This document shows positions 2,563 to 41,779 of a DNA stretch of 64,000 bases, piece after piece. Both the position numbers and the translations under genes were made by a program. The notes beneath the pieces are model-generated. The model ran no database searches, was not told the origin of the DNA, and saw only the letters and a list, made by a program, of their open reading frames with translations. Every line of letters begins with the position of its first letter. Position 1 is the stretch's first letter. The DNA comes from Candidatus Dojkabacteria bacterium (GTDB lineage Bacteria > Patescibacteriota > Dojkabacteria > SC72 > JAFGCJ01), in NCBI GenBank assembly GCA_016932785.1, contig JAFGCJ010000002.1, forward strand, positions 13,983 through 77,982, in the 5' to 3' direction.

Positions 2563-5500
2563 CTACTCTATTCTAAAAGGCTCAATTATCTCTTTTACCT
2601 CGTCTGTAAGCTCGATACCACGTTTAAGCTGCATTGTTTTTACGTCATCTCCGTCGGGAATGGATATCATTACGGGTGTATCGCCGGGGTTTTCTTTTAA
2701 GGCTTGCTTAAGCCTCTTTATATCATCTTTGTTAGCGTTCGTAGGTATTCTCAAACTAAGTCCATCAGAAGACTTTGTAGCTTTGTCTAGATCAATGACT
2801 CTTAGCGAATCACAGATAATGCTTCTCGTTCCATCGCGAACATTAACCTTTCCTATAAATATGGTCGGAGTGCTCTCTTCAAGATTTTTTGAAAATTTTT
2901 CATACGTACTGGGAAAAAGAATTACCTCAATCTCACTGGTCTGATCTTCTATGAGGAGAAAGGCCATACGTTTATTTTCTTTCTTTGTCGAAATAGCTTT
3001 TATATTGGTTATAAGCCCGCATGCTTGTACGTGTGCATTTGGTTTCATCTGTTTTATTTCAGAAATATCCTTGACACCTATTGCTGAAAGGTATGACTTA
3101 ATTCTTCCAAGGGGATGGGCGGTAATATACATACCTAGAAGTTCCTTTTCCCATTCGATTTTGTTTGTGTCTGTGGCTGGCTCAACCTGTGGAAGTGGTG
3201 TCGGAGTAATCTTATGAGTCTGGCCTTCCTCTTTGCCCATAGAAAATATGTCAATCTGACCCTCTGCTTCAGAATTTTGTCTCTTCTTATAAGTCTCATG
3301 CATGGATGGGAGAGCGGCAAGTAGGCTGTTTCTTTCTCCAAAGTTGTCCAGAGCTCCTACTTGAACCAGATAGCTTATGGTTTTCTGGTTAATTTTATTA
3401 AGAGGAATTCGATACAGGAAGTCATCAAAGTTCTTGTATGGTCCGTCTTTGTCTCGAATATTTATGATAGTTCTGACTGCTGATTCACCGATATTCTTGA
3501 TTGCCGCCAGGCCAAATCTAATGTTGTATTTCTCTTCAATGGAAAAGCCAGATTTGCTTTTGTTTACGTCCGGAGGAAGGATGTTTATCCCTTTTCTGTT
3601 ACACTCCGCAATTATAAGAGAAATTTTATCGAAATCGTCGATTTCAGACTTGAGTAGTGCTGCCATAAATTCCACAGGATAATGAGTCTTTAGGTAGGCC
3701 GTTTGAAAAACGACTAGAGCATAGGATGCTGCATGTGGTTTGTTGAAAGCATAGTTTGTAAATGGAATGAATAGTTCAAACAGTGCCTCGGCTTTCTTTT
3801 CTGAGAGTCCGTTTTCCTCGAATCTCTTTAGTAGGTCGTCCTTCATATCAAACAATATCTCGGGTTTCTTTTTACCGGTAAACTTCCTCGCTTTGTCGGC
3901 TTCTGGCCAGGTCATTCCCGCAAGTGCTACTGTTGTCATCATTATATCCTCTTGATAAACAAGGAGTCCGTATGTAAGTGAGAGAAAGTCCTTCATTCTT
4001 GGATCAATGAAAGTAACAGATTTTTTCCCGGATTTTCTGTCGGCATATTCTTGTTGAAACTGGTTTGGTCCTGGTCTTACAAGAGCTAGAGATGCTGAGA
4101 TATCAAATATTGATTCTGGTCTAAGAACTTTCGCAGTGTTTTTCATGGGACCTGTCTCTAGCTGGAAGACCCCAAGAGTATCCAGATCTTTTATCAATTT
4201 GTATGTTGCTTCGTCATCAAGAGGGAATTTTGTTGGGTCAATATCAATTCCTCTTTCTTCTTTAATGATTTTTACTGATTCTGAAATAGTATCTAGACCG
4301 GTAAGACCAAGAAAGTCAACCTTGAGAAGCTTTAATTCCTCGAGTGAGTCCATTTCGTATTGAGTGATCATTCTGCCGTCTTCGCCTAGTGTTTTATCCC
4401 AGATTACAGGGCAATAGTCGACTATTGGTCCTGGCGTGACCAGGATTCCACATGCATGTATTCCCTGGCTTTTGGCGACACCCTCGATTTTTTTTGCGGT
4501 ATCTATCAATTTCGCCGCGTCGGGGTCTTGCTTGGTTAGCTCCTTTAATTCTGGAACTTCTCTTAGTGCCCTATCGATATCTACTTTTGCAAGTCCCTGT
4601 CCAGATGGCGGAATCAATTTTGCTATCCTGTCTACATATGCCAGGGGAAGTCCCAGTACTCGTCCGGCATCTCTTATGGATCCTCTGGCCTGCATTCTTC
4701 CAAAGGTAACAATATGGGCTACCGATTCTTTGCCATATAAATCTATAGCGTAGTTAATAACCTCTTCTCTTCTTGAGCTTGCTACGTCGATGTCAATATC
4801 CGGTGCTGACGGCCTTCCCTTGTAAAGGAACCGTTCAAAAGGAACCTGGAAATCCAGAGGATTTGCTGTGACTATACCTAGTATGTAGGATACGAAACTT
4901 CCCGCCGCTGATCCTCGAGTTGTGAAGGGAATATTGTTGTTCTTGATCCAATCTGTGAAATCCATGTTCATTACTATGTAGCTTGAGTACCCCATCTCAG
5001 AGATTACTTCAAATTCGTACTCTGCCCTCTTCTTCTCGTCTTTTGTTAATTCTCTATTGATTACTTTAGGAGCCCGCTGTTTTATGAGGTCGTACAGATA
5101 TTTGTCGTAGTCTTTTTTGTATGAATCCGGTATTGGAGGCTCAGGAAAAACCCAATCCTCAAATCCCAAATCAAAGACCTCGCACATATCTGTGACTTTC
5201 TGGGTGTTTTCTATGGCCTCAGGAATGTCTTGGAATAGCTCTTCCATTTGTTCAGGACTTTTGAGGTAGAATTCGTCTGTTTCCCTTGTCAGCCGCTGTT
5301 CATCCTCAAGTCTTTTCCCGGTATTTATGCACATAAGAACCTCTTGTGCCAGGGCATCCTCTTCTTTTATATAATGAACGTCGCAGGTTGCTATTAGTGG
5401 AAGCTCGAGATCTTCTGCTACCTGGATAAGGCCTTTATTTGCAACTTCCTGATCTTTCATACCGTTTCTCTGGAGTTCAACATAGAATCTATCCTTCCCA

Positions 5501-6180: not shown

Positions 6181-6681
6181 TTGGGAAAGGAACAATCAGA
6201 ACAATCAAAAGATTTTAGTCCCGAAGAGGCAGACGAAGTGGAGGCACAGATGTTGGCGACAATGGGCAATACTGCTATGACGGAACAGCTTTGCGCTGAT
6301 TTCGGAGTGCTCTTTGGAACTGTAAATATCCCGGCTATCGGTATATATAAAAATTGTGTATATGTTAAGGGCTCGGAAAAAGGAAAAGGACATTTCGCAG
6401 CATTGACTAATTATGCTGATAACGGGGCTTCTGCCAGAGTTGCGTTTTTATTTCCAAGTGAAGATTCAAAAGGTCCGTACAGGCCATTTGATTTATTTGT
6501 TACAGCTGTATTAGCGGCTGGGGCTAAGCACGACGTGAAGTTGGCATTTGTTCGGGTTGGGGATGTTGTTGCCGGGTGTAAGGATGATCCCTTTGGTCAA
6601 GGGGGGCCAGTAGAATGCTGGAGAAATTTGGGATTTGATATGTCGCCTGATGGGGATTGGTTGGTTAAGGCTGTGAAATAG
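6181..6681 (+). CDS. Hypothetical protein (166 aa), TTG start, locally GC-richer
   Basis: ORF with non-ATG start. No recognisable motif. Codon usage is G/C-richer than neighbouring genes. Confidence 0.3.
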   Translation: MGKEQSEQSKDFSPEEADEVEAQMLATMGNTAMTEQLCADFGVLFGTVNIPAIGIYKNCVYVKGSEKGKGHFAALTNYADNGASARVAFLFPSEDSKGPYRPFDLFVTAVLAAGAKHDVKLAFVRVGDVVAGCKDDPFGQGGPVECWRNLGFDMSPDGDWLVKAVK

Positions 6682-6776
6682 TCTATCGTGCCGTTGAATG
6701 AGAGCTACTCAGGCAGCGGCGTTTATGTGAATCATGATTTCATCGCAGCTGCCTGGGTTTTGTGATCTATGTATTG

Positions 6777-7112
6777 CTATTCGCTTGATGCAAGAGAGGC
6801 CAGATCCTCTATATTTTCAGCATTGCAAACATCACTCATCTCTACCTTGATTACTGTAAAATTTGATCCTTCCGGTGGAGATTCCAAAAGATCTGAGATT
6901 TCTTTTCCATTTTGGCACGTTGTTGAGCGGTTACCATTCGTCTCAACAATGACGTAAGTGAATGGATCGGTCTCGATCTCAAGTATTTTATTGTCCTCGA
7001 GTTTAATATAGTATTTAGGAAAGGCAATACTTCTTGCAAGAAATCCACATCCGAGTTGAGCTATACATAGAATCACAACTATGACTAAAGTGACCCTCTT
7101 CAAGTCAACCAC
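6777..7112 (-). CDS. Small secreted/membrane-anchored hypothetical protein
   Basis: N-terminal hydrophobic helix (LVIVVILCIAQLGCGF) consistent with a signal peptide or anchor. 111 aa. Confidence 0.3.
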   Translation of the reverse strand: MVDLKRVTLVIVVILCIAQLGCGFLARSIAFPKYYIKLEDNKILEIETDPFTYVIVETNGNRSTTCQNGKEISDLLESPPEGSNFTVIKVEMSDVCNAENIEDLASLASSE

Positions 7113-7231: not shown

Positions 7232-7957
7232 TTGAAATCCCCTACTCAATCAGCTAGACTGTATCTAATGCAAACCAAGACCCAGAAAATAATCAAAATA
7301 GTCTTTAGATTCCTTTGTCTTGCTGTGTGGCTTGCGTTCTTTGTCATATTGGTGAAACCTGAGATCGCAAAGTACGCTATACCCAAACTAATAAACTTCA
7401 CCGAAACCTATGCTGAATCCAATAGCGGTATCGATCTAGATCCGATACTTGCATCAAGTCTTGATGATTATTCTGGTCCAAGTTCTTCACTTTATGCTAC
7501 TAAGTTTGGCGATAGCAGCAGCGGCATATATGGTGACCTTGTTACGTCTGACACCAGGGTTATCGCTTTAAATAGGTTCTTGGTCGATTATGGCTCTCCT
7601 ATGGCGCCGTATGCTGAGACTTTTGTTACTTCAGCAGAAGATGTCGGGTTAGATTGGAGGCTTGTTCCCGCAATATCGGGTGTTGAATCGGCTTTTGGAA
7701 GAATTATTCCTTATAACTCATATAATGCCTGGGGATGGCGGGGAGGTGCTTATGGCGCGTTTAGCGAATTTGGTTCGTGGGAAAATGGTATAGAACATGT
7801 TACAACAAGAATAGCAGTTGGTTATGGTACTGATATTGATGTGTTTACCATGGAGCCAATTTATTGTCCTCCATGCGGGCAAAATCCACAGCATGCCTGG
7901 GCGAATGGTGTTGCGAGATATATGGCTGAGATCTCTGAATATAGGAAAAACCTTTAG
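7232..7957 (+). CDS. Membrane-anchored lysozyme-like (glucosaminidase/SLT-like) putative peptidoglycan hydrolase, paralog A
   Basis: N-terminal TM helix. C-terminal ~120 aa block SPMAPYAETFVTSAEDVGLDWRLVPAISGVESAFG...YNAWGW carries an E-S catalytic-type motif. Clear paralog of the CDS at 24543-25166. Confidence 0.45.
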   Translation: MKSPTQSARLYLMQTKTQKIIKIVFRFLCLAVWLAFFVILVKPEIAKYAIPKLINFTETYAESNSGIDLDPILASSLDDYSGPSSSLYATKFGDSSSGIYGDLVTSDTRVIALNRFLVDYGSPMAPYAETFVTSAEDVGLDWRLVPAISGVESAFGRIIPYNSYNAWGWRGGAYGAFSEFGSWENGIEHVTTRIAVGYGTDIDVFTMEPIYCPPCGQNPQHAWANGVARYMAEISEYRKNL

Positions 7958-8284: not shown

Positions 8285-8362
8285 ATTTTCAGTGTTTTTT
8301 TGTCTTAGATTACGATTTGCCTATAATTAAGGCAAAATTCCGTCTTATGCTATAATAAGGCC

Positions 8363-9133
8363 ATGGCGATGATCGATTTGAAAAAGTATTCAGGCCTTGC
8401 TTTGGCATTCGATGGCTCGAAGCTTCTACCTCAGGAGAATGGGATAGAAATCGGATCAAGGGATGTAGTCAATATTGGTGATGTCAGACCTCAGCTTCTC
8501 AACCCTGAGCTTACCTGCCCTACTGTTTTTTATTATATATTCTCAAATATCGACAGAAAGTCTCTTCTTAAGAGGAAACGTCTAAGATTTGACATGTATG
8601 TTATCCCACCCAATCTTGCCGGTATTGAGTATGTAAAGACACTCGGTACTTCTGCTGGGAAATACCCCCTTCTTTTGGAGGTTGTTCATGGTTATCTTAC
8701 TTTGCTGTTGCAGACTTCCAATGAGGAGCCCGGATCGATTCCTCAGGTTAAAACCACGACTATAAGGTTGAAGAAAGGTGAGAAATTGGTGATACCACCT
8801 AACCATGATTTTGTCTTTGTAAATTCCAGGCAGACTCTCTCGGTTGTTGCAATAATGTACAGCTCAAAGTGTAGAATGAAGAATATCTTCGACGATACTC
8901 GTGGAGCGGCAAGCTATGTTATAAGAAAGAACGCGCGATTGGAAACTGTGCTTAATCCTTCCTTCAGGAATGTCAGTATAGTTAAGCCCTGGAAACCTGA
9001 ATCAATTTATAAAGATTTTAACTTAACAGCAAAAACTCCTATTTTCAAACAGATTCTAAGAAAATACCAAAGATTTAAATGGCTTCATGATAATTCTAAG
9101 ATAGAATGGACTAATCTTCCAGGTTGTTACTAA
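8363..9133 (+). CDS. Cupin-fold protein resembling cupin-type phosphoglucose isomerase, with metal ligands not conserved
   Basis: Segments ...TLLLQT... and KLVIPPNHDFVFVNS...VVAIM resemble archaeal cupin-type PGI (MLLQT / VVYVPPYWAHRTVN). The GHFH metal-binding box is replaced by GTSAG. Confidence 0.35.
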   Translation: MAMIDLKKYSGLALAFDGSKLLPQENGIEIGSRDVVNIGDVRPQLLNPELTCPTVFYYIFSNIDRKSLLKRKRLRFDMYVIPPNLAGIEYVKTLGTSAGKYPLLLEVVHGYLTLLLQTSNEEPGSIPQVKTTTIRLKKGEKLVIPPNHDFVFVNSRQTLSVVAIMYSSKCRMKNIFDDTRGAASYVIRKNARLETVLNPSFRNVSIVKPWKPESIYKDFNLTAKTPIFKQILRKYQRFKWLHDNSKIEWTNLPGCY

Positions 9134-24403: not shown

Positions 24404-24413
24404 GCTTATAGTT

Positions 24414-24543
24414 GGGGGTCTGACCCCCGTCAGGTTTGACCCCGTTCTATAACGGTTACGGTCTATTTTTTAATGAAAATTTTGTTAAAACCCCAAGGTT
24501 AAAGTGTTTTCTTTGGGGACAGACCCAACGCGGGTCAGACCCC
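24414..24543. repeat. 130 bp MITE-like element, copy 1, with 13 bp terminal inverted repeats (GGGGTCTGACCCC / GGGGTCAGACCCC)
   Basis: Begins GGGGTCTGACCCCCGTCAGGTTTGACCCCGTT and ends GGGGACAGACCCAACGCGGGTCAGACCCC. Each end carries two tandem ~12 bp GGGTCNGACCCC-type motifs. AT-rich core. Lies between convergent genes and abuts the stop codon of the CDS at 24543. Confidence 0.6.
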
Positions 24544-27525: not shown

Positions 27526-27548
27526 GTTTATATATTAGCATAAGATTT

Positions 27549-27678
27549 GGGGTTTGACCCCCGTTGGGTTTGACCCCGTTTTATAAAGCAGAGGAAACGT
27601 TTTATAATGAATTTTTTGTTAATTCGTTGGAATAAAGGGATTTCTGTTGGGGACAGACCTAGCCGGGGTCAGACCCCC
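27549..27678. repeat. 130 bp MITE-like element, copy 2, same family as 24414-24543
   Basis: GGGGTTTGACCCCCGTTGGGTTTGACCCCGTT ... GGGGACAGACCTAGCCGGGGTCAGACCCCC. The ends are near-identical to copy 1, the core has diverged, and the length is the same. Sits upstream of gpmI. Confidence 0.6.
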
Positions 27679-30407: not shown

Positions 30408-30483
30408 GGGGCGCTAGCTCATCCGGTAGAGCAACTGGCTTTTAACCAGTAGGTGCGGGGTTCGAGTCCCCGGCGCCTCACCA
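30408..30483 (+). tRNA. tRNA-Lys (anticodon UUU)
   Basis: Manual fold: acceptor GGGGCGC/GCGCCTC, D arm GCTC-ATCCGGTA-GAGC, anticodon stem ACTGG/CCAGT with loop CTTTTAA (anticodon TTT), T arm CGGGG-TTCGAGT-CCCCG, discriminator A, encoded CCA. Coordinates are +/-1 nt. Confidence 0.85.
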
Positions 30484-30518
30484 CTTTTTATCGAGTTTTT
30501 TGGATTTTTCTGCTGTTA

Positions 30519-31322
30519 ATGTTATCTAAATATGCAATAAATAAGCAAAAGGGGAATATTGGAGAGGCATTTGTACAGTTTTTCTTATCTAGATTTGCGC
30601 TTGTTCATAAGGTGGATGGTGGAAATGATCTTGGTAATGATTTCTTCTGTGAACTATTTTTGGAGGAATATCCTACGAACATACTATTTTATGTACAGGT
30701 AAAGCTTTGGTGCTCTGAGCCTAGGGTTAAAGAATCTACAAAAGATTATTGGAGAAAGGCTCAGATACCTGTGTATTTATTCTGGGTGAAATGTGCAGGT
30801 AAAGAATTCGATGATATTGTTTTGGACGATGCTTTAGATGAAGCTTCATGGGTAGTTAAATATAAAAGAATGACAGCTGAGTTGCACAAAGAAAAGGCTG
30901 AAGGATTTGAAGATTTTGATTTGTTGAAATTTAAGAGAGATTTAATGATTGATTATGCTAGGTCGATGTTTATACGTGGTTTCACCCCTGTTTTTGATGC
31001 GGGAATGTTTTTCACAGAAAAGGAGAGAAGTAATCTTGACCTGGCTAGATTTCAAAATCCCGCGAGGAGCCTCATAAAGGAAGATCAATACGTAGAGACA
31101 GTACTTGATGAAAGCTGGTCTCATTTTATCTCTGTAGCACATTTGTTACATAGAATGTACAAAGAACTTAAGAAAGAAGAATATTTGAAAGGTGCTGAAG
31201 ACTGCATTAATCTTGCCGAAACATTATATGGAATATCTAATGTCACAGATGTTGATCATGTCTTGGCCTATTTATGGAGCGTAAAGAAAGAAATACGTAA
31301 TTCACGAAATCAGTTAGGTTAA
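30519..31322 (+). CDS. DUF4365-type PD-(D/E)xK nuclease-fold protein
   Basis: GNIGEAFVQFFLSRFALVHKVDGGNDLGNDFFCELF...ILFYVQVK reproduces the DUF4365 pattern (iGE...D.GxD...E...hVQVK, a restriction-endonuclease-like D/E-K core). The ORF-track GTG start at 30453 would overlap the tRNA-Lys 3' end, so the internal Met at about 30519 is preferred. Confidence 0.5.
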   Translation: MLSKYAINKQKGNIGEAFVQFFLSRFALVHKVDGGNDLGNDFFCELFLEEYPTNILFYVQVKLWCSEPRVKESTKDYWRKAQIPVYLFWVKCAGKEFDDIVLDDALDEASWVVKYKRMTAELHKEKAEGFEDFDLLKFKRDLMIDYARSMFIRGFTPVFDAGMFFTEKERSNLDLARFQNPARSLIKEDQYVETVLDESWSHFISVAHLLHRMYKELKKEEYLKGAEDCINLAETLYGISNVTDVDHVLAYLWSVKKEIRNSRNQLG

Positions 31323-31477
31323 AGGGTGCCTAATAAGTATTGATTGTCAATAATTTTCCTTGAAGCCAGATGAGAGAGCAATTCCTCACAGCAATGTTTA
31401 AAGCGATAGGCTGGGATATCAATAATGAACAAGGTTATGCAGAACAGTATAAAGAGGTTGTTCATGGAGACAAAGAG

Positions 31478-33049
31478 TTAATCCATATATTCTTTCAAAT
31501 ATTTTCTTAACCTCTTATCCACAACATACACATAAGTTCCACGAATGCCCCGTGTAAGCAATGTTTTGTAAATATTTTTAATGTAGCTTTCAAGCTCGTT
31601 CGGATCAGAAATAGCTCTTTTACCATTAAAATCAAGATATTTACTTTTGTCTATAACAATACTCTTTTTATCCTTGTCATATGAGATTTCCGGCCCAATA
31701 ATAACTCCAGCATAGTTAAGGTCATACCCCTGAATTGTATGGATGCAACCAACCTCATTTACGGCATTCTCTGAGTTGACCCAATCCTTTGTAACGCTGT
31801 TCCATCTTAACTTAACGTCGTCAATTTCTATATCGTAATCAATAGACTCATCTTTTTTGGTTTTCCATTCCCATGAGTACCCAGCTAATAGTCTTGAAAG
31901 TCCGATATTCTTGTCTTGTTCTTTTATGGCATCAACTAGTTCTCTTATATCGCCGAATAGCTTAAGTTCATATTCGTCGAATTTGACCTTCTCTTTCTGC
32001 TCGACATTGAGTATTCGTCTTATATATTCGATATAGTCCTGTCCGCCCCTCACTCTCATTTGGGAAATCAACGCGTATTCTTTCATCTTGTACTTTCTTA
32101 TATGGTGCTCCCTTATATCTGCTGGCTTAATGCTCTGATTTTTGTCGTAGAAAAGAACTTGATGTTTGGAGGAGTTAATAATCCAGTCTAGCTCAGTCCC
32201 CTCTTCTTTTTTGAGGCCTAAGGTTTTGTTTATCCTATCGAAGTCTCTGTAGTTAGTTAGGTTTACTCTTCTTTGTAATCTGTGCGCTTCATCAACAATT
32301 AATATGTCGTAATCGAATTTGATGACGTCGTTTGGTCCTATGACCATACCCGGATTTAATCCTTTTACTGATTTGAAGACTTTTTTTAGTGTTTTCCTTA
32401 GGGAAGTCATAGGAATTACCAAACCAATCCTGAGGTCTTGTGCCCAATCCTGTTCATATAGATATTTCATTAAGTATACCGCCACTATTGTCTTTCCGGT
32501 TCCTGGCTCTCCTGAAACAATACTGGTTTGGTGGCTGTCTTTTTTAATACTTTCCGTTATCTCCTGAACAACATTAAGCTGGTCTTCGCTAAGGCTTTTA
32601 TAGGGAGAATATTTAAACAAGTCACTATTTTCTATCTGAACAAGAGCTTGATTAGCCAGTTCTCTCTTTAGTAGTTCTTTCCATATAACTTCAAATTTTG
32701 CTTGATAACGTTCTCGGTCATAGTAGTCCGATTCTTTAACACCTGAATTACCGTTCTGGAGTAGATATTTGCCATCGCCGGACATGTATTTTATTAAGGA
32801 AGATTCAATGTCTAGAGTAGCCGATTTATTGTACTCGTCATCAGCAATTACATGTAAATTCTTCAGCCTTGCTCTTTCAGGATTTTCTATTTGTTGTTTT
32901 GCCCTATTATAAGCACTTACTGATTCTCCAACATATGCTTCTCTTCCATCTTCGATTATGTATACAATCGGCCAATTTAAGCCAAATCTGTAATCCTTAA
33001 TTTTCTGGATTGTGCTTGGAGTAAAACTGTATTTGGTTATCTCATACAT
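31478..33049 (-). CDS. GIY-YIG nuclease-like N-terminal domain fused to DUF2075 (Schlafen-helicase-like) P-loop NTPase
   Basis: N-terminal WPIVYIIEDGREAYVGESVSAYNRAKQ (GIY-YIG-like). Walker A IVSGEPGTGKT. Walker B/DEAH-like ILIVDEAHRL. The C-terminal region is typical of DUF2075 proteins. Confidence 0.6.
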   Translation of the reverse strand: MYEITKYSFTPSTIQKIKDYRFGLNWPIVYIIEDGREAYVGESVSAYNRAKQQIENPERARLKNLHVIADDEYNKSATLDIESSLIKYMSGDGKYLLQNGNSGVKESDYYDRERYQAKFEVIWKELLKRELANQALVQIENSDLFKYSPYKSLSEDQLNVVQEITESIKKDSHQTSIVSGEPGTGKTIVAVYLMKYLYEQDWAQDLRIGLVIPMTSLRKTLKKVFKSVKGLNPGMVIGPNDVIKFDYDILIVDEAHRLQRRVNLTNYRDFDRINKTLGLKKEEGTELDWIINSSKHQVLFYDKNQSIKPADIREHHIRKYKMKEYALISQMRVRGGQDYIEYIRRILNVEQKEKVKFDEYELKLFGDIRELVDAIKEQDKNIGLSRLLAGYSWEWKTKKDESIDYDIEIDDVKLRWNSVTKDWVNSENAVNEVGCIHTIQGYDLNYAGVIIGPEISYDKDKKSIVIDKSKYLDFNGKRAISDPNELESYIKNIYKTLLTRGIRGTYVYVVDKRLRKYLKEYMD

Positions 33050-33066
33050 AATTTTCGATCAGTTTT

Positions 33067-33423
33067 TTAGAGTTTTGTATATTTTTTGCTTGTTCCCTTA
33101 GCCTTCTCTACCGGGTATTTTTTGCTGTTTTGTTCGATTTTTTTTTGAACGATTTCGTCAATGTTAACATCGAGTGTTTCTGCTAGCAGTGCGATATATA
33201 TTAATATGTCGGCTAATTCCTCGATCACTTCTTTCTTGTCATACTTGGAGGTCCATTGAAAGCATTCTAGTAATTCTCCTGCCTCTATTGATATTGATTT
33301 GGCAAGATTTTCTTCTGAATGGAACTGTTTCCAATCTCTATCATCTCTAAATTTAATGAGTTTCTCTATGATTTCTCTTTTCATTAAAATTTCATTAAGA
33401 ATTGTTTTTTTTAATTCTAGCAT
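33067..33423 (-). CDS. MazG-like nucleoside triphosphate pyrophosphohydrolase
   Basis: EENLAKSISIEAGELLECFQW...EELADILIYIALLAETLDVNIDEIV carries the EExxE/D metal-binding helices of all-alpha NTP-PPase (MazG/HisE) proteins. 118 aa. Tail-to-head with the DUF2075 gene, 17 nt gap. Confidence 0.65.
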   Translation of the reverse strand: MLELKKTILNEILMKREIIEKLIKFRDDRDWKQFHSEENLAKSISIEAGELLECFQWTSKYDKKEVIEELADILIYIALLAETLDVNIDEIVQKKIEQNSKKYPVEKAKGTSKKYTKL

Positions 33424-33518
33424 AATGTGTGGGTTTACTAAACAAAGGAGATACAGTAATGAAGGTCTATCAGTTGTAATAGGTTAGCAAATATTCTCTC
33501 AACATGGTTCGATTTCTT

Positions 33519-33570
33519 TCCCCAGTTCCTACCCCTACCCCATCCCCACCCTCACCTCCGCTCCCCGCCC
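33519..33570. repeat. C-rich homopyrimidine tract; strong G-quadruplex motif on the minus strand
   Basis: Plus strand: CCCCAGTTCCTACCCCTACCCCATCCCCACCCTCACCTCCGCTCCCCGCCC. Minus strand: GGGCGGGGAGCGGAGGTGAGGGTGGGGATGGGGTAGGGGTAGG, with at least four G3-4 runs separated by 1-2 nt loops. Located in the divergent intergenic region between the MazG-like gene and the CDS at 33625. Confidence 0.6.
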
Positions 33571-33624
33571 AAATATTTTTCTATGCTACAATGAAGTTGT
33601 ACTAACCTAATCGCTTCACCCACC

Positions 33625-33939
33625 ATGAACAAAATCACTCTCGGTATTATCTGCGGACTAGCCTTTGGAATTCTCGATGTTCTCATAATGATCCCTATGC
33701 CTGAAAAAGATAAACGTAAAAAGACTGAAGCCATGATTGGAGCTTTCCTCGAGCGATTCATGGTCGGATTGATAATTCCGAATTTAAATCTCGGAACCGG
33801 ATACGTAGTTACTGGTATCATTGTTGGACTTGGGCTTAGTGTCCCTACTGCGGTTATTACTCGGGCTTATGCCCCTATCATCGGGATCGGCGTTGTTGGC
33901 GGTTTGATTATTGGGCTAATTTCTAATGCTGTAATATAA
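33625..33939 (+). CDS. Small glycine-zipper integral membrane protein
   Basis: 104 aa. Three hydrophobic segments rich in GxxxG (GIICGLAFGILDVLIMI; GIIVGLGLSV; GIGVVGGLIIGLI). Confidence 0.4.
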   Translation: MNKITLGIICGLAFGILDVLIMIPMPEKDKRKKTEAMIGAFLERFMVGLIIPNLNLGTGYVVTGIIVGLGLSVPTAVITRAYAPIIGIGVVGGLIIGLISNAVI

Positions 33940-33951
33940 CACGGTAATATA

Positions 33952-34209
33952 ATGCGGCAATATTCAAAGTTTACAGACAACAAGGATCCTGTAGTCGCTG
34001 TACTCCTTGATCGACTGTTTCAGGTTCTTGATGAAATCACGGGCGGTGAATATGAAGTGGAAGGTAAAAAACCTATCTCACTTATTGATGGAAAAGCTCT
34101 GGTGGATCGGACTCTAAATCATTTCTCGGAGATTGATACGAAGTATCAAAAGATAATTGGGGTTAAGGAGAAACAAGTAGCCATTGGTGACAAATTTGAA
34201 TTTGTATAG
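33952..34209 (+). CDS. Small hypothetical protein (85 aa)
   Basis: Compact ORF immediately after the membrane protein. No motif recognised. Confidence 0.3.
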   Translation: MRQYSKFTDNKDPVVAVLLDRLFQVLDEITGGEYEVEGKKPISLIDGKALVDRTLNHFSEIDTKYQKIIGVKEKQVAIGDKFEFV

Positions 34210-34235
34210 TACTCTAATTTAGTAGTATATAGATA

Positions 34236-34970
34236 GTGCAAAAATCTTACAAAAACCTAGCAAAATACTACGATCTCTGCTTTCAGCAAAAAGATTACCA
34301 GAAGGAGGTAGATTTCATATTGGAACTTGTTGATAAATATGGCATCAATAAAGAATCAATCCTAGATGTTGGTTGTGGGACCGGGACACATCTTTGCCTT
34401 CTGAAAAACCATTTTGACAATCTCTATGGCGTCGATTTAAACAAGGAAATTCTTGAAATCGCAAAAACCAAGGTTCCTGGCGCTCATTTTCTCAATGCAG
34501 GAATGTCCGACTTTAAGATTAAAGAGAAGTTTGATGTCATTACCTCTTTATATTCAGTTTTTAACTACAATAAAGATGTGGATTCTGCCACTAAGACGCT
34601 GCAGAATTTCCATAAGCACTTACAGGAAAAAGGAGTTGTAATAATTGCTCTGTATAACGAAAGAACTACTGATAAGAAAATTTCCCTTCATGTGGGTAAA
34701 GATGACGATACAAAAGTGGCAAAGATAGATCAGTTCAGGTATATACCTAAGGACAAAACTGTGAAATCCGAACATTTAGTTCTGATTAAAGACAATGAAG
34801 AGATAGATTTTGAAGTTGAGGATGATGATATTTATAGGATTTTTGATTTTGATGAAATAGAGAGTATGGTAAAGGAGTCAGGATTTTCGAATAGCGAGAT
34901 ATATGATAGGTTTTCGTTCGATAAAGCGGCAAATAAGTCTAAATTTCCTGTGTTGGTGTTAAGGAGGTGA
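34236..34970 (+). CDS. Class I SAM-dependent methyltransferase (TylM1/DesVI-like small-molecule N-methyltransferase family)
   Basis: YYDLCF...ILDVGCGTGTHLCLL (SAM motif I), GVDLNKEILEIAK, DVITSLYSVFNY. The overall layout matches sugar N,N-dimethyltransferase-like MTases. Confidence 0.6.
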   Translation: MQKSYKNLAKYYDLCFQQKDYQKEVDFILELVDKYGINKESILDVGCGTGTHLCLLKNHFDNLYGVDLNKEILEIAKTKVPGAHFLNAGMSDFKIKEKFDVITSLYSVFNYNKDVDSATKTLQNFHKHLQEKGVVIIALYNERTTDKKISLHVGKDDDTKVAKIDQFRYIPKDKTVKSEHLVLIKDNEEIDFEVEDDDIYRIFDFDEIESMVKESGFSNSEIYDRFSFDKAANKSKFPVLVLRR

Positions 34971-34979
34971 GTATGCACA

Positions 34980-35125
34980 TAACTCATCCCTCTCAAGATG
35001 TGTAATATCAAGGGCTTGGTTACAGAGGGCCCGTGCCTTTTGAGCAGTTATCCCTTTAAGTAGTTGTGAATATGGTAGTTGAAGATCAGCTATAGGTGAC
35101 GTGAATTAATTATATCATATGTAGC
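34980..35125 (-). pseudogene. Degenerate duplicate of the 5' end (first ~45 codons plus ~25 bp upstream) of the gene at 36876-37697
   Basis: About 88% nucleotide identity to 37560-37725 over ~145 bp. Start codon ATG is mutated to ACG. Reading frame is retained for ~45 codons (TSPIADLQLPYSQLLKGITAQKARALCNQALDITHLERDEL) before ending. Confidence 0.55.
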
Positions 35126-35316
35126 GAGTACATATTATAGGATAACAAAGTCTTTTGCTGATGGAAGTTCCTCTTTTGTGGTATAATGCACCAGTTCGAA
35201 ACAAAGTAGGACTTTTGTGAATTTGTTTGTCTCCCCTTCAGAGTAAATCTTAATTCCCAGGTAACTATTTTGGCATGACCGGAATTACCGGGAATTAAAT
35301 TCTACATAATAATACA

Positions 35317-36513
35317 GTGAGTAAATACAATTATAACCACAGAAATCGTGGATACAATGACTATGCAAAGCGAAACGGAAGACGTCGTGGGGGGCGTAAT
35401 AGCTTTCATGGGAGTAAGATTGATCCCAAAAAATATGTCTCAAGTGCTGAGGCTGGACCATCGTGCTCTATTTATCAGGATGACTGCAAATTTGAAGATT
35501 TCAACGTTGCTTCGGTGATCCAGTCGAATATCAGAGCTAAGAATTTCAGCCAACCGACAAAGATACAAGCCCAGGCAATTCCATATGTACTTTCCGGTAA
35601 GGATATTTTGGGATTAGCGGGAACTGGATCTGGTAAAACTGCGGCTTTTCTCGTTCCGATGATTGATAAGGCTCTCAAAGATCGTGGTCAGAAGATCTTG
35701 ATTGTCACTCCAACAAGAGAGCTTGCCGCCCAGATTAGAGATGAATTTGTTACTTTCTCAAAAGGAACGAATCTCAGGTCGGCCGTTGTTATCGGAGGTG
35801 CAAGTATGGGGAAACAAATTTCGGTATTGAAGCAAAACCCTCAGTTTGTTATTGCTACTCCTGGAAGATTGAAAGATCTTTCTCAAAGGGGGGTGATTCA
35901 TTTTGATGTATTTAACAATATTGTACTTGATGAGGTGGATAGGATGCTCGATATGGGTTTTGTCCATGAGATAAAGCAAGTTATTTCAAAATTGAGCCAA
36001 AACAAGCAGTCGATGTTTTTTTCAGCTACTATGAATCCTAAGATCGAGGAAATTGCCAGATCGTTACTTAGGGATCCTGTGAAAATTCAGGTTGAGAGGC
36101 TTTCTTTAAAGAGAAACGTGGAACAGAATGTCGTTAAAGTTAGACCAGAAGAGAAAATTGAGAAGCTCCATGATCTGCTGAATGGCGAAGATTTTCACAA
36201 AGTTCTGATCTTTTCGAGGACTAAATATGGCTCTGATAAACTTTCAAAGACGCTTTTAAAAAGAGGCTTTTGTGTAGATTCGATACATGGTGGCAAAACA
36301 CAGTCAAGAAGAGAAAGAGTAATACGTAAGTTTCGTCAGGATGAGATTAAGATTCTCGTTGCAACAGATGTTGCTGCAAGAGGATTGGATATTGACGATA
36401 TTACCCATGTTATAAACTACGACGAGCCGAATTGTTATGATGACTATATTCACAGGATCGGCCGTACTGGCAGAGCCGGGAAAAAAGGTAACGCGCTCAC
36501 ATTTGTTGGGTAG
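35317..36513 (+). CDS. DEAD-box ATP-dependent RNA helicase (motif II variant DEVD)
   Basis: Q motif, Walker A AGTGSGKT, PTRELA, VLDEVDRMLDMGF, SAT, HRIGRTGRAG. R/G-rich N-terminus. Confidence 0.8.
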   Translation: MSKYNYNHRNRGYNDYAKRNGRRRGGRNSFHGSKIDPKKYVSSAEAGPSCSIYQDDCKFEDFNVASVIQSNIRAKNFSQPTKIQAQAIPYVLSGKDILGLAGTGSGKTAAFLVPMIDKALKDRGQKILIVTPTRELAAQIRDEFVTFSKGTNLRSAVVIGGASMGKQISVLKQNPQFVIATPGRLKDLSQRGVIHFDVFNNIVLDEVDRMLDMGFVHEIKQVISKLSQNKQSMFFSATMNPKIEEIARSLLRDPVKIQVERLSLKRNVEQNVVKVRPEEKIEKLHDLLNGEDFHKVLIFSRTKYGSDKLSKTLLKRGFCVDSIHGGKTQSRRERVIRKFRQDEIKILVATDVAARGLDIDDITHVINYDEPNCYDDYIHRIGRTGRAGKKGNALTFVG

Positions 36514-36875
36514 ATTAATTGCTTGTATTTCCTATGTTGTTAAACCTTCTTGCAATAACCTCGAGATCATCGATGAGATAGATAACGGTGTTAGAGCCCG
36601 TTTTCCGGCGGGTCACCATTTCTCTACTTAGTGAAATTTGCTCAAAGAAGTAATTACTTATAGGGTATTTACAGCTCAAAGAGAGTCGAGAGAGACAATC
36701 AATACTGTAATTTTATTAGAGAACGGTCAATTAGTAGAAGACAGATCATCAGTAAAAATGAATCCTGGTTTTCGTGATGAACGAATTGTCGGTGGAGCAG
36801 ATGATGCCGTTGATTTCACAGAACGAATGGTTGAAAAACTAAAATCGATTGGTGCTGCTTAATACTTTCCGGGAT

Positions 36876-37697
36876 CTATTCAAACTCTCTCTCATAGGGT
36901 CTATTTTGCCTGATCCAGACTTCGGCCTCTCCGTCTCTGGTCAGGGGATCCTCGTTTAGAACAGCTTCAGCTGTAAGAGCGAGGTAATCCCTTACTCCCT
37001 CCGGCAGTACTTCACCTTCTGTTCGACAATCAAATTCCACTGAAAAATCTGCGTCAGCATCAAGAGTTGTAATGACTTCTGTTTTAATGCCGTCAATAGG
37101 AATTCCCAGTATTTTAGAAAATCTTGTTGCTACCTCTGTAGTGACGCGTTGAAATTGTTCGGTTTCTTTCTGTGATTCAGTCATATGTTCTGGACTAGAA
37201 ATTTCTCCGCTTAATAAATGAGCATTTGGAGAGAGAAAAAGTCTGATCTGGGGATTTCTTACTGCTGAGCCCCATCTACGCATTTCATCTTCTGTGAGTG
37301 TAGGAACTGGGTCTGGTGCGTCTTTTCTCCTTAGCATCCAAGCGGTTTCATCCCATACTCTAATGACGGTTCCTAGACCTGGGATTCCAGATTCCTTACA
37401 TAATTCCTGTATTTGTGTCCCAGCTGCGCTGATTTGTTCTTCGTTGGGACGAAAATCAACTCCTTCTTCATAAGTTCCGACACCCGCGGTTAGTTCTATT
37501 GCAAGAACTGTTCCGTCAGTTGCCTCTTTAGCTCCTTTCCCGACTCGTACCTCTCGATCATCTGGATCTAGCGTGTCTATTCCTAGCTCACGATGAGTTA
37601 TATCCAGGGCTTGGTCGCAGAGGGCCCGTGCCTGTTGTGGAGTTACCCCTTTAGGGAGTTGTGAATCTGGTAGTTGAAGATCAGCTATAGGTGACAT
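36876..37697 (-). CDS. Hypothetical protein (273 aa), locally GC-rich (about 47%)
   Basis: No recognisable motif. Codon usage is distinctly G/C-richer than surrounding genes. Its 5' end is duplicated as the pseudogene at 34980-35125. Confidence 0.45.
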   Translation of the reverse strand: MSPIADLQLPDSQLPKGVTPQQARALCDQALDITHRELGIDTLDPDDREVRVGKGAKEATDGTVLAIELTAGVGTYEEGVDFRPNEEQISAAGTQIQELCKESGIPGLGTVIRVWDETAWMLRRKDAPDPVPTLTEDEMRRWGSAVRNPQIRLFLSPNAHLLSGEISSPEHMTESQKETEQFQRVTTEVATRFSKILGIPIDGIKTEVITTLDADADFSVEFDCRTEGEVLPEGVRDYLALTAEAVLNEDPLTRDGEAEVWIRQNRPYEREFE

Positions 37698-37821
37698 GGT
37701 GCAATTATATCATAGGAGATAGAGTTTATGTTATGGGATAGTAGGGTTTTGGTTTGCGTGGGTTTGTCTTGTGGGGCGTGGCTGGTGTGTTGTAATTTTG
37801 CTTTCCACTATTTCGTATGTC

Positions 37822-38716: not shown

Positions 38717-39034
38717 ATGCCCAAGACAAAATTAGGTAACTGGTCGATCGGACTTATAATCGCAATGCCCTTTTTGTTTCTTCTCGGCCGATTTTTTATA
38801 GATTTGTTTTACGAGTCGGTATCATCTGGAGATACTATTCTTGAGGATATTGCTAAGAGGCCCGCTTTGGGACTTTCGATGCTTGCTGGAATGGGTTCTG
38901 GAGTCTCAGCCTTTGTTACTGGGCTGATAGCGATCATAAAACAGAAGGAACGGGCGTTACTGGTCTTTGTGTCAACTGTGTTAGGTGCATTGGTGGTTTT
39001 ATTTCTCATAGCTGAAATAGTATATCCACACTGA
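38717..39034 (+). CDS. Small integral membrane protein
   Basis: Three hydrophobic helices in 105 aa. Confidence 0.35.
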   Translation: MPKTKLGNWSIGLIIAMPFLFLLGRFFIDLFYESVSSGDTILEDIAKRPALGLSMLAGMGSGVSAFVTGLIAIIKQKERALLVFVSTVLGALVVLFLIAEIVYPH

Positions 39035-39366
39035 TAGATCGCTACTAATAAATCGCCGGGAATTTATTCTGAAGTAGGTTTCACTTTTCGGCAGTGTAGA
39101 TGCAGTATTTGAACAGACCTCTTAGGGCTAAATTGTAGTACTCTACTCCATTGGTCACGTTGACGAAATACTTTATCAATCTGAGAAAGTTTACATTTTT
39201 GAATTGCATCTCGACGTGTTTGTGCAATCTAATGAATGATTTTGCTGCATTATACCTGATGTCTTACTCCTGAATATTTTTGTATCCAAATTGCATTGTT
39301 TGGACTATGTTGCATAAACAGTCGGGCCTATAGTGTAATCACCATTAAGAGCTGTGGTCATTAAAT

Positions 39367-39405
39367 AGCAACATTTGCTTTTAGCGAAGTGTTGCTTTTT
39401 GACTG
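39367..39405 (+). terminator. Candidate Rho-independent terminator / orphan hairpin in a 500 bp non-coding region
   Basis: AGCAACA-(16 nt)-TGTTGCT followed by TTTTT. Confidence 0.25.
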
Positions 39406-39567
39406 CTCTTTTACAATCAAAGGACAGTATGCTCTTCCTGATATTGAAATAATGGCCGTATTAAGTGGATATTTTTAATGTCTTCTTATATCGGTCATTA
39501 ATCGATTCAGAAGGAGGTGATGCGAAAAGAAAAGTTTTGTGGATGTTTTTGGGGTTACTAGAAGAAA

Positions 39568-40104
39568 GTGGAGGAAAAAGCTATGAAGAAATTGAAAATT
39601 GCGGGTTTGTTTTTTTTGATCCTTGCCGTGGCACTGGCATGTGCGCCTACCGGCGGTGGAGCAGAAGTTCCACCTACCGAGACGCCTGCACCGACTTTGT
39701 CTCCCACTCAGGCTCCGACATTGGGGCCACCTGCGCCCACAAAGGGGCCAGAGATTCAGACTCAGGAGGCAGAGAAACCGGTCGAGACCCCAGAAATTCC
39801 AGGCTATATGCAGACAATAGAGGCTGGGCATGATTTCATAATAAGCCGTAAGTGTCCTCCAGGCAGCGATTCAACTGCCATAGAGCTGTATATCAACTTG
39901 GACGGGTCTGGTCCCAAAGGGGCCAGTATCCGTGGGGTTGATGGTCTCCTCCAAGAAGGAGATGAGATCATCCGTGTCGTTAAATGTAACGATGAGGGAG
40001 AGGGGGTTCCATACCGATTCGGAATGATAATCGAAATTCGGTACAACTCCGTGGACGTCTGGGTATATACTCCCCCTCTACCTGTTCAAGGTTCAGACCT
40101 GTAA
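39568..40104 (+). CDS. Lipoprotein (lipobox LAC), GC-rich (about 55%)
   Basis: MKKLKIAGLFFLILAVALACAPTGG gives a signal peptidase II lipobox. P/T-rich linker followed by a globular domain. Confidence 0.5.
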   Translation: MEEKAMKKLKIAGLFFLILAVALACAPTGGGAEVPPTETPAPTLSPTQAPTLGPPAPTKGPEIQTQEAEKPVETPEIPGYMQTIEAGHDFIISRKCPPGSDSTAIELYINLDGSGPKGASIRGVDGLLQEGDEIIRVVKCNDEGEGVPYRFGMIIEIRYNSVDVWVYTPPLPVQGSDL

Positions 40105-40372
40105 ATCAGTATGTAAACCATTGGAAGTCGATCCCAAAACTTTCCCGCCTAGAGCGGATGAATTTGTCGCACTGTCCTTTGGTTTACTAAATCAATCGAA
40201 ATTTTGAGTTTTCTCAGGCCTTTTCCTGTTTCTATCAATTTCTGGAACTCCTCAGTAACATTTTCCTTTTCAAAAAAACTTCAGAGTTACATGCAAAATT
40301 ATAAGTACACTCTTCCCTGTGGTATTTGTGATATTACTTCAGCTATAATAGAGCATAAGTTATCCGGGAAGA

Positions 40373-41779
40373 TTGATTTCAAAAATGCAAGACTTGAAAG
40401 ATAAAATTGCAGACTTTTTAGAGAACGTTCCAATTTCGACAGAGCAGCCAGTTTCTTCTTCATCAATAGGCAAGGATTTGAAAGGTGAGACACTCCATTC
40501 TGTGATTGTCTTTTTACAGTTATTTAACTGTGTAGAAATTAAATCCAAAGGAAAGAAAGCGGGAGAATGGAAAGTTAAGTCGGTATCGCCTACCGCCGAT
40601 TATTTTCTCAGAAGTCTTGCGAGATACATCAGAAAAGAAAATTCCTTGATCAGCTCGTGGGCCAAACTTGGGACAACAGACGAGAAGGGTTCAATATTTG
40701 ATTGGGGGACCAAATATCTTGCTGAAATGGAGAAGCGGCGGACAGTGAAATTTAGTGATAAGTATCCAACGAGGCTGGTTTCAGTTTCACAAGCTATTAT
40801 AAAGGCCCGTGTAAAAGGATATGAGGAACCTCTTTTTCTTGTCCAGCTTGATGAAAAGATAGATCAGTACCAGTTCATTGGAGGCAGGAAAATTGGTTCT
40901 GATAAGGATCTTAAGGCAACTATTGAGAGGGAACTAAGTGAGGAGTTGTATAAGAATGACATGGTAAAAAAACATAATTACACGCTGGAACCTTTAGCTG
41001 AGAATATGAGGCATTATGAGATTTCTCCGACATTCGGAGCCTTTACTGAATATACCTTTTCTATCTATCAGATCATGTTTGCTGAGGAGGATATCAAGCT
41101 TGGCGGAGGAGACATATGGGTCTCTGCAAAAGAATTAGAAGCGGAGCAATCTTATGACGGAAAGCATATTAGGTTAACCTTCGAGCCGGAGAAAGTTATA
41201 GGAAAGACATATGATGAACTCCCCTTGTCCACTGTTCGGGTACAGCCGGAGTTTGCTAGAAAAAAGGCTGCCTCAAAAGATTCCACAGCGAGTGCCCAGA
41301 AGATACAGGATCTTATTTCTGAAGGTGAAAGTACTAATCTTGAATTTAAGGCTACAATTAGGTGGGATAAGAGGAGAAATCAGGTCAACAAAGATTTAGA
41401 GAAGGTTGTTGTCAAAGAAATATCGGCTTTTCTAAATTCCAAAGGAGGAACTCTTTTAATAGGTGTTGACGATGATGGGACTGTAATCGGATTAGGTGAT
41501 GATATCAAGACCCTGCGAAAACAGAATCTGGATGGTTATATGCAGGCTGTAGTTAGTCTTATTTCGGATAACATAGGTGTTCAATATTGCTCTAATGTGG
41601 ACGTTTCTTTTGAAAAAATAAATGGTGACGACATTTGCGTTCTTTCTATACGTAAAGCCTCGGGACCTGTGTTTGTGAAGAATAATGATAAAAAAGAGTT
41701 CTATGTTAGAAGGTCAAATACCTCTAGGCTTCTCGATAGTGAGGAAACTTATAACTATATCCTGCATACTTGGGGCTAG
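40373..41779 (+). CDS. Fusion protein: N-terminal region with degenerate Nudix-like box plus C-terminal AlbA_2 (Schlafen-box-like) putative DNA-binding domain
   Basis: C-terminus ESTNLEFKATIRW...VVKEISAFLNSKGGTLLIGVDDDGTVIGL matches the AlbA_2 signature (E..LEFK ... AFaNt.GG.lliGV.d.G.i.Gl). Mid-region YQFIGGRKIGSDKDLKATIERELSEELY resembles the Nudix box (GG...REL.EE) with the catalytic Glu positions substituted. Confidence 0.5.
   Translation: MISKMQDLKDKIADFLENVPISTEQPVSSSSIGKDLKGETLHSVIVFLQLFNCVEIKSKGKKAGEWKVKSVSPTADYFLRSLARYIRKENSLISSWAKLGTTDEKGSIFDWGTKYLAEMEKRRTVKFSDKYPTRLVSVSQAIIKARVKGYEEPLFLVQLDEKIDQYQFIGGRKIGSDKDLKATIERELSEELYKNDMVKKHNYTLEPLAENMRHYEISPTFGAFTEYTFSIYQIMFAEEDIKLGGGDIWVSAKELEAEQSYDGKHIRLTFEPEKVIGKTYDELPLSTVRVQPEFARKKAASKDSTASAQKIQDLISEGESTNLEFKATIRWDKRRNQVNKDLEKVVVKEISAFLNSKGGTLLIGVDDDGTVIGLGDDIKTLRKQNLDGYMQAVVSLISDNIGVQYCSNVDVSFEKINGDDICVLSIRKASGPVFVKNNDKKEFYVRRSNTSRLLDSEETYNYILHTWG

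Follow-up and report, generated by a model that had tools for sequence, protein, structure and literature searches.

The locus considered here belongs to Candidatus Dojkabacteria bacterium, a member of the Candidate Phyla Radiation (CPR), and was analysed within a window of 64,000 nucleotides, i.e. the whole stretch from position 13,983 to position 77,982 of contig JAFGCJ010000002.1. A DEAD-box RNA helicase gene and a convergent gene encoding a 273-aa protein (JW710_00900, hereafter gene273) are bracketed there by a direct repeat, as the promoter region and the first 37 codons of gene273 (copy B) recur on the far side of the helicase in the form of a short, truncated copy (copy A). The latter is lodged between a methyltransferase gene, the last of an accessory block that begins at a tRNA-Lys gene, and the promoter of the helicase (Table 1). 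Copy A is probably a relic of a lineage-specific duplication of the start of gene273 together with its promoter, and it is presumably devoid of function.

Table 1. Features of the locus, in window coordinates unless a locus handle precedes the position.
Feature	Position	Strand	Basis or remark
tRNA-Lys(UUU), proximal edge of accessory block	30408-30483	+	ARAGORN, Rfam
S-adenosylmethionine (SAM)-dependent methyltransferase, last gene of accessory block	34236-34970	+	Pfam Methyltransf_25/11/23; PADLOC mad2-like, 1.4e-17
Copy A, probable dead relic: ~43 nt of promoter region and codons 1-37 of gene273 duplicate	34992-35144	-	blastn and tblastn
Pseudo-coding part of copy A	34992-35102	-	translation, codon table; 14 differences in 111 nt
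Extended -10 box TGATATAAT of copy A, intact (hexamer 35109-35114)	35109-35117	-	6 nt upstream of former start codon
Helicase native promoter and conserved 5' leader	35174-35316	+	blastn to L012; seven-locus alignments
DEAD-box RNA helicase, 398 aa, between the repeats	35317-36513	+	Pfam DEAD and Helicase_C
Spacer between convergent helicase and gene273, 362 nt	36514-36875	.	holds 74-aa ORFan
74-aa ORFan JW710_00895	36638-36862	+	no family match
Intact gene273, JW710_00900, Candidatus Dojkabacteria (CPR)	36876-37697	-	rare uncharacterised family
Copy B, live 5' end: codons 1-37 and ~43 nt of promoter region of gene273	37587-37740	-	repeat finder, blastn
Extended -10 box TGATATAAT of gene273 (hexamer 37704-37709)	37704-37712	-	6-nt spacer to ATG at 37695-37697
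Helicase promoter and leader, window	35179-35316	+	conserved locus
Helicase promoter and leader, other loci	L012 ~7692-7828		
	L013 ~6663-6819		
	L014 ~1119-1263		
	L015 ~2856-3006		
	L016 ~2879-3006		
	L017 ~2795-2935		

The repeat pair

With a repeat finder, positions 34992-35119 and 37587-37714 align without gaps over 128 nt at 86% identity and at a spacing of 2,595 nt, and a blastn comparison of the window with itself extends the pair to 34992-35144 and 37587-37740 (154 columns, one indel, 82.5% identity, E=2e-39). The left edge of the homology is sharp at 34992/37587, and similarity fades gradually at ~35144/37740. An earlier reading made from the sequence only had proposed direct repeats about 2.6 kb apart around the helicase and the intact gene; the pair is real and highly significant. 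The coordinates then proposed are slightly off, copy B having been made to start at 37560, about 27 nt before the homology begins. As for the identity of about 88% given at the time, the nearest measured value is 87.4%, over codons 1-37, against the lower figure for the full alignment. The self-comparison suggested in the same reading yielded a single pair of gene-start copies: sensitive blastn of the window against itself disclosed no third copy, and apart from this pair the 64 kb contain just one repeat, whose unrelated copies lie at 24.4 and 27.5 kb.

Since this genome is a metagenome-assembled genome, in which misassembly classically occurs at repeats, a chimeric join or a mis-collapsed repeat could in principle have created the arrangement. 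The copies diverge by 14-18%, which would not confuse an assembler, and an independently built Logan assembly of SRR13394437 (71,961-bp contig) has an arrangement identical to that of the 598,548-bp contig deposited at NCBI, so that we give next to no credence to an assembly artefact.

Decay of copy A and the promoter of gene273

When the 273-aa protein was used as a tblastn query, copy A matched residues 2-37 with 80.6% identity (E=2.5e-13), and its minus-strand translation from position 35102 reads TSPIADLQLPYSQLLKGITAQKARALCNQALDITHLE. As the sequence-only reading had noticed, the start codon is lost, translation with the codon table giving ACG in place of ATG at 35100-35102 (minus strand); no alternative in-frame start was found in copy A. 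The frame stays open through codon 37, after which similarity is wholly lost, and an in-frame stop is first reached beyond the repeat, at codon 48. For the decay of the reading frame, previously placed after about 45 codons, the end of homology at codon 37 has to be distinguished from this later stop. The truncation point (34992) lies 21 nt from the methyltransferase stop codon (34968-34970).

Over codons 1-37 (111 nt), the two copies are 87.4% identical, while either copy is 58-68% identical to the orthologs at loci L002 and L003. Being each other's closest relatives, the copies point to a duplication within the present lineage, and copy A unites three marks of a duplicated-gene remnant, namely homology within the genome, disabling lesions and a partner nearer to it than the orthologs are. 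Four of the 14 differing positions can be polarised, in that both outgroups agree: copy A carries the derived changes M1T and P15L, at second codon positions and at residues identical in the close homologs P0001-P0003, and copy B carries two derived synonymous third-position changes. From these four sites, the asymmetry would run in the direction expected of a dead copy A and a live copy B. Regarding the distribution of the differences, identity is about 67% in the upstream region, 100% over the 12 nt of the -10 block, 3/8 in the 8 nt around the start codon, 100% over coding nt 3-30 and 84% in the rest of the coding region, a pattern that would fit neutral decay of copy A with constraint solely on the coding part of copy B. 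Selection on the perfectly conserved 28-nt run was considered and rejected, such a run between the copies not being significant in a permutation (P=0.15).

The promoter bears directly on the loss of the start codon. The conserved upstream box of the sequence-only reading is indeed present, as part of a 12-nt block AATTATATCATA identical at 35108-35119 and 37703-37714; the TTATATCATA box is the reverse complement of the extended -10 element TGATATAAT. The orthologs have the same -10 element before their ATG, at 7 nt in L002 and 6 nt in L003, and this leaderless-type geometry of gene273 is kept in three lineages (window 37695-37712, minus strand; L002 ~733-753; L003 ~3077-3094). The pattern TGNTATAATN6ATG occurs twice in the window for 0.06 occurrences expected. 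The spacer from the -10 box to the ATG is too short to hold a Shine-Dalgarno site, and at its 5' end the intact gene is less stably folded than shuffled sequence (z +1.76). For these reasons, the gene273 mRNA appears to be leaderless. If it is, a single change from ATG to ACG would suffice to silence copy A in spite of its intact -10 box; translation of copy A should then be abolished, and the relic may still be transcribed since the extended -10 box persists. Elsewhere in the window, a second site with the leaderless-type pattern reads TGCTATAATAAGGCCATG at 8348-8365 (plus strand).

Retention of copy A for a function has to be weighed at this point. The 12-nt -10 block and the first 28 coding nt are identical between the copies and flank 8 nt that hold five changes, as might be preserved if the copy A promoter fired an untranslatable RNA antisense to the 3' end of the methyltransferase gene, if read-through from the latter carried 128 nt with 86% complementarity to the gene273 mRNA at its 5' end, or if copy A titrated a factor bound to the conserved promoter and initial region. 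Identity runs of that length arise by chance at the probability given above; no conserved or stable RNA structure and no Rfam hit lend substance to the idea, the hairpin at the junction is unremarkable (z -1.0 and -1.6), and a comparable relic was found in no second genome. A retained function is accordingly quite improbable. More specifically, that the putative leaderless-type promoter of the relic should fire antisense into the methyltransferase gene, or that read-through RNA should complement the gene273 mRNA, is highly improbable; if true, either would couple expression of the defence-like block to that of a tautomerase-like gene in a CPR bacterium.

Several candidate elements within and beside copy A were discarded. 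An RNA element in the repeat was rejected, the RNAalifold consensus reaching -4.6 kcal/mol without covariation and single-sequence folds being weaker than those of shuffles; between 29.5 and 39.5 kb, no Rfam hit was obtained at an E value of 1 or better except the tRNA. The junction hairpin at 34962-34991 (-10.9 kcal/mol) was rejected as a terminator, as it has a z of -1.0 and no T-run. The methyltransferase stop codon is overlapped by a perfect Shine-Dalgarno-like AAGGAGGTGA, and an ATG 5 nt further on opens a mini-ORF (34963-35005, plus strand) of 10 codons, MHITHPSQDV, which extends into copy A. As the remains of a gene cut short at the breakpoint of copy A, this mini-ORF is unconvincing, since start codons preceded by GGAGG are frequent by chance in the window.

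Origin of the duplicate

Copy A ends at 35144, and conservation upstream of the helicase begins at 35174 according to blastn and possibly at ~35150 according to the alignment, so that copy A abuts sequence native to the helicase. When the intergenic region was compared by blastn with all fetched loci, 35174-35234 matched the region upstream of the closest helicase ortholog (L012), and the extended -10 element of the helicase, TGGTATAAT at 35179-35187, is common to the alignments of seven helicase loci. The helicase itself is most similar to the CshA and RhlE models; its homologs number in the thousands, and the top hits that bear a name include Dojkabacteria. Six other lineages share its promoter and leader, which suggests a housekeeping gene acquired by inheritance rather than cargo.

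Copy A separates the methyltransferase block from the helicase transcription unit, and the end of a unit (37740) is there joined to its start (~35145), in direct orientation, as in a tandem duplication. In this mechanism, a unit of 2,595 bp, running from the helicase promoter at ~35145 to 37740, i.e. 43 nt upstream of the gene273 ATG, would have been duplicated in tandem; a later deletion or replacement would have removed from the upstream unit the helicase copy, the spacer and codons 38-273 of the gene273 copy, and the residue, consisting of the promoter and 37 codons, would now be joined to the end of the methyltransferase block. Duplication would thus have preceded deletion. The later deletion is needed by the tandem model, since no second copy of the rest of the unit remains in the window, where neither another remnant of 35145-37586 nor a second helicase was found. 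Among the origins put forward in the sequence-only reading, the scar of a segmental duplication and deletion is the one that gains support, from the copies being nearest relatives, from the lesions and the sharp truncation, and from the junction with the native upstream region of the helicase.

The comparison with known remnants of tandemly duplicated genes is close. Shared with them are the direct repeat, the contrast between an intact 5' end with its promoter and a truncated copy, the lost start codon, the non-synonymous changes confined to the dead copy (among few polarisable sites), the copies as nearest relatives and the end-to-start junction. What differs here is that only ~150 bp survive and the second unit is invisible, and that the host is a small CPR bacterium (contig of 598,548 bp) in which little dispensable DNA is expected.

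Several points weigh against a relic of tandem duplication. Two events have to be assumed, and the second unit is not preserved in full, whereas a tandem duplication should have left the whole of it twice. The examination at DNA level covered 64 kb of a genome of roughly 600 kb. No close relative of this genome was found, so that the ancestral gene order is not readable. Lastly, the -10 box and the first 28 coding nt are perfectly kept in the relic, which, statistically unremarkable as it is, could hint at residual function or gene conversion.

Attempts to recover the gene order from relatives were unsuccessful on both routes followed. A helicase scan of reference-genome contigs returned one locus, 50% identical, which lacks a tRNA gene and any sign of a common gene order, and the nearest helicase orthologs inspected, 61-70% identical and located on six contigs, have neighbours that are all unrelated and no gene order in common with the window. 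The orthologs of gene273 sit on short contigs in unrelated neighbourhoods, and with a degenerate 26-nt pattern of its conserved 5' end, a single contig, known beforehand, was retrieved from JGI metagenomes and none from the viral contigs.

This mobility of gene273, whose orthologs occupy different neighbourhoods with a promoter of their own, is one ground for supposing that copy A is instead what is left of an independent full-length paralogue, once located divergently upstream of the helicase and truncated by insertion of the defence-like block or by an associated deletion. Another is that the truncation point stands 21 nt from the end of that block, which is lower in GC (36.4% for 30484-34970 vs 39.7% for the window) and lies beside a tRNA gene. 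On such a course of events, however, a landing in direct orientation exactly at the native promoter of the helicase, with the other copy just past the same helicase, would be a coincidence; neither the tRNA side of the block nor the rest of the window holds a 3' remnant of the paralogue, and neither an integrase nor a tRNA repeat marks the block as an insertion. An independent paralogue is therefore unlikely, though it deserves to be kept in mind.

The accessory block itself, adjoining the tRNA gene, has the appearance of a variable defence islet. Besides the mad2-like methyltransferase, it comprises a DUF4365-like gene, a Schlafen-group-3/DUF2075-type helicase with Nhi- and AbiO-like PADLOC hits, a gene for a MazG-like protein and two encoding unknown proteins. 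Copy A had been described as marking the distal edge of a tRNA-Lys island, which is correct as to position, the block ending 21 nt before it, whereas the status of integrated island finds no support. A boundary of such an island at the repeat was rejected, as the 3' end of the tRNA-Lys gene is not repeated elsewhere in the window, with up to 3 mismatches allowed, and as the genes called within 10 kb of gene273 have no recombinase or transposase family on record.

A related proposal is that the copies are attL/attR-like sites, or the footprint of an integrated or excisable 2.6-kb element carrying the helicase and gene273. As with the attachment sites of integrative elements, direct repeats of 100+ bp that include a gene end flank a discrete segment beside a tRNA-linked accessory block, and the 28-nt identical stretch could be taken for a core, although a run of that length is not significant. 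Unlike them, the repeats show 14-18% divergence, bracket a housekeeping helicase and have no tRNA-derived counterpart; for the genes called within 10 kb of gene273, the precomputed Pfam families comprise no recombinase or transposase, direct Pfam and NCBIfam scans of the nearest genes brought up none either, and no phage, plasmid or viral-contig similarity was found. The topology is also wrong, the truncated copy standing downstream of the intact gene, on the side where site-specific integration would not restore the gene, and the conserved promoter and leader of the helicase speak for inheritance. In other words, a nearby recombinase, a repeat derived from the target and an accessory or foreign nature of the bracketed DNA are all lacking, and attachment sites are scarcely credible here. 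The recombination site and the integration footprint of the sequence-only reading are thus both left without support.

The gene273 family, the helicase leader and other features

For gene273, the label of GC-rich gene holds for a modest excess (45.5% vs 39.7% for the window) and not for the GC content at third codon positions, which is 30%; since the excess comes from amino-acid composition, it is no evidence of foreign origin. The protein has no Pfam, NCBIfam, PADLOC or PDB-sequence match. Its homologs amount to 4 clusters in a word-indexed search and to 85 cluster representatives, among 50%-identity clusters, in a hidden Markov model scan of 1.84 billion representatives. As only one of these 85 representatives comes from the present genome, no annotated intact paralogue from it is on record.

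The AlphaFold model, built on a four-sequence alignment (predicted local distance difference test 80.7, predicted template modelling score 0.79), displays repeated beta-alpha-beta units, and the Foldseek matches in the PDB are MIF, 5-carboxymethyl-2-hydroxymuconate isomerase (CHMI), fused 4-OT and Cg10062, each spanning one half of the model (probability up to 0.98, E of 5e-3 or weaker, target-normalised TM-score ~0.5). In the tautomerase superfamily, a Met-Pro start, which provides the catalytic Pro-1, is a hallmark. Met-Pro-Leu or Met-Pro-Ile opens all 15 distant members inspected save one with a short N-terminal extension (MDNMP), whereas the window protein and its two closest homologs, P0002 and P0003, start with Met-Ser-Pro. 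The likeness to the superfamily (4-OT, MIF, CHMI, cis-CaaD) would thus reside in the predicted beta-alpha-beta fold, in the superposition of each half on MIF, CHMI or fused 4-OT and in the Met-Pro start of the distant members, while the chain of ~270 aa is twice as long as a MIF-type subunit and would contain four beta-alpha-beta units, there is no Pfam or PDB sequence match, and Pro is not residue 1 after Met removal. Going by the model, the family could represent a double-length branch of the tautomerase superfamily that has yet to be described. If the N-terminus matters for function, the strong conservation of the first ten codons among the orthologs would be accounted for.

The helicase leader is an observation in its own right. 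About 115 nt long and preceded by the extended -10 element (TGnTATAAT), it recurs in seven divergent CPR-type loci, two of which come from assemblies labelled Dojkabacteria. Its conserved blocks are CAAAGTAG, GAAT, TTAATTCYCAG, TCTATTTTG, a CCGG/CYGG hairpin with two compensatory sequences, and GGAATTAAATT. In a proposed four-helix structure, 85.7% of cells pair, compared with 34-52% when the partners are slid; covariation is weak, the observed score being reached by 70 of 500 shuffles. The leader has no match in Rfam, and it is a candidate cis-regulatory element, which might act for instance in autoregulation or cold response.

The spacer between the helicase and gene273 is unusually long, with one frame open for ~118 codons save for a double stop. 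The ORFan that it holds, JW710_00895, has no homolog other than itself in 5.8 billion proteins, and the region could be an ORFan, a decayed gene or non-coding; the spacer was rejected as a pseudogene, as there is neither a family nor a homolog beyond itself. Further on, past an inositol monophosphatase gene, a second defence-flavoured cluster (38717-41779) encodes a 468-aa Schlafen AlbA_2 protein and two ORFans. Two defence-flavoured clusters, at 30519-34970 and 38717-41779, thus flank the helicase locus, and no complete known defence system was recognised in either.

The other repeat of the window is an intergenic element of ~130 nt in two copies, 24412-24543 and 27546-27677, which are 74-80% identical. 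GC-rich terminal inverted repeats, GGGGTCTGACCCC ... GGGTCAGACCCC, surround an AT-rich core, and the copies fold as long hairpins (-61.7 and -64.5 kcal/mol, z -5.6 and -7.4). The motif of this element occurs 10 times for 0.57 expected, all inside the two loci, and the element looks like a miniature inverted-repeat transposable element (MITE) or a repetitive extragenic palindromic (REP) sequence.

Taken as a relic, copy A would be an ordinary scar of an old local duplication and deletion, a fresh instance of a well-known kind and not the site of a mobile element. It would record one local event of duplication and deletion that took place, in a CPR genome of small size, where a variable defence-like block now ends, and such relics serve mainly as markers of recent rearrangement. 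Worth more, perhaps, are two by-products of the analysis, namely the putative leaderless promoter of a rare family with a tautomerase-like predicted fold, and the conserved, possibly structured 5' leader of the DEAD-box helicase, absent from Rfam.

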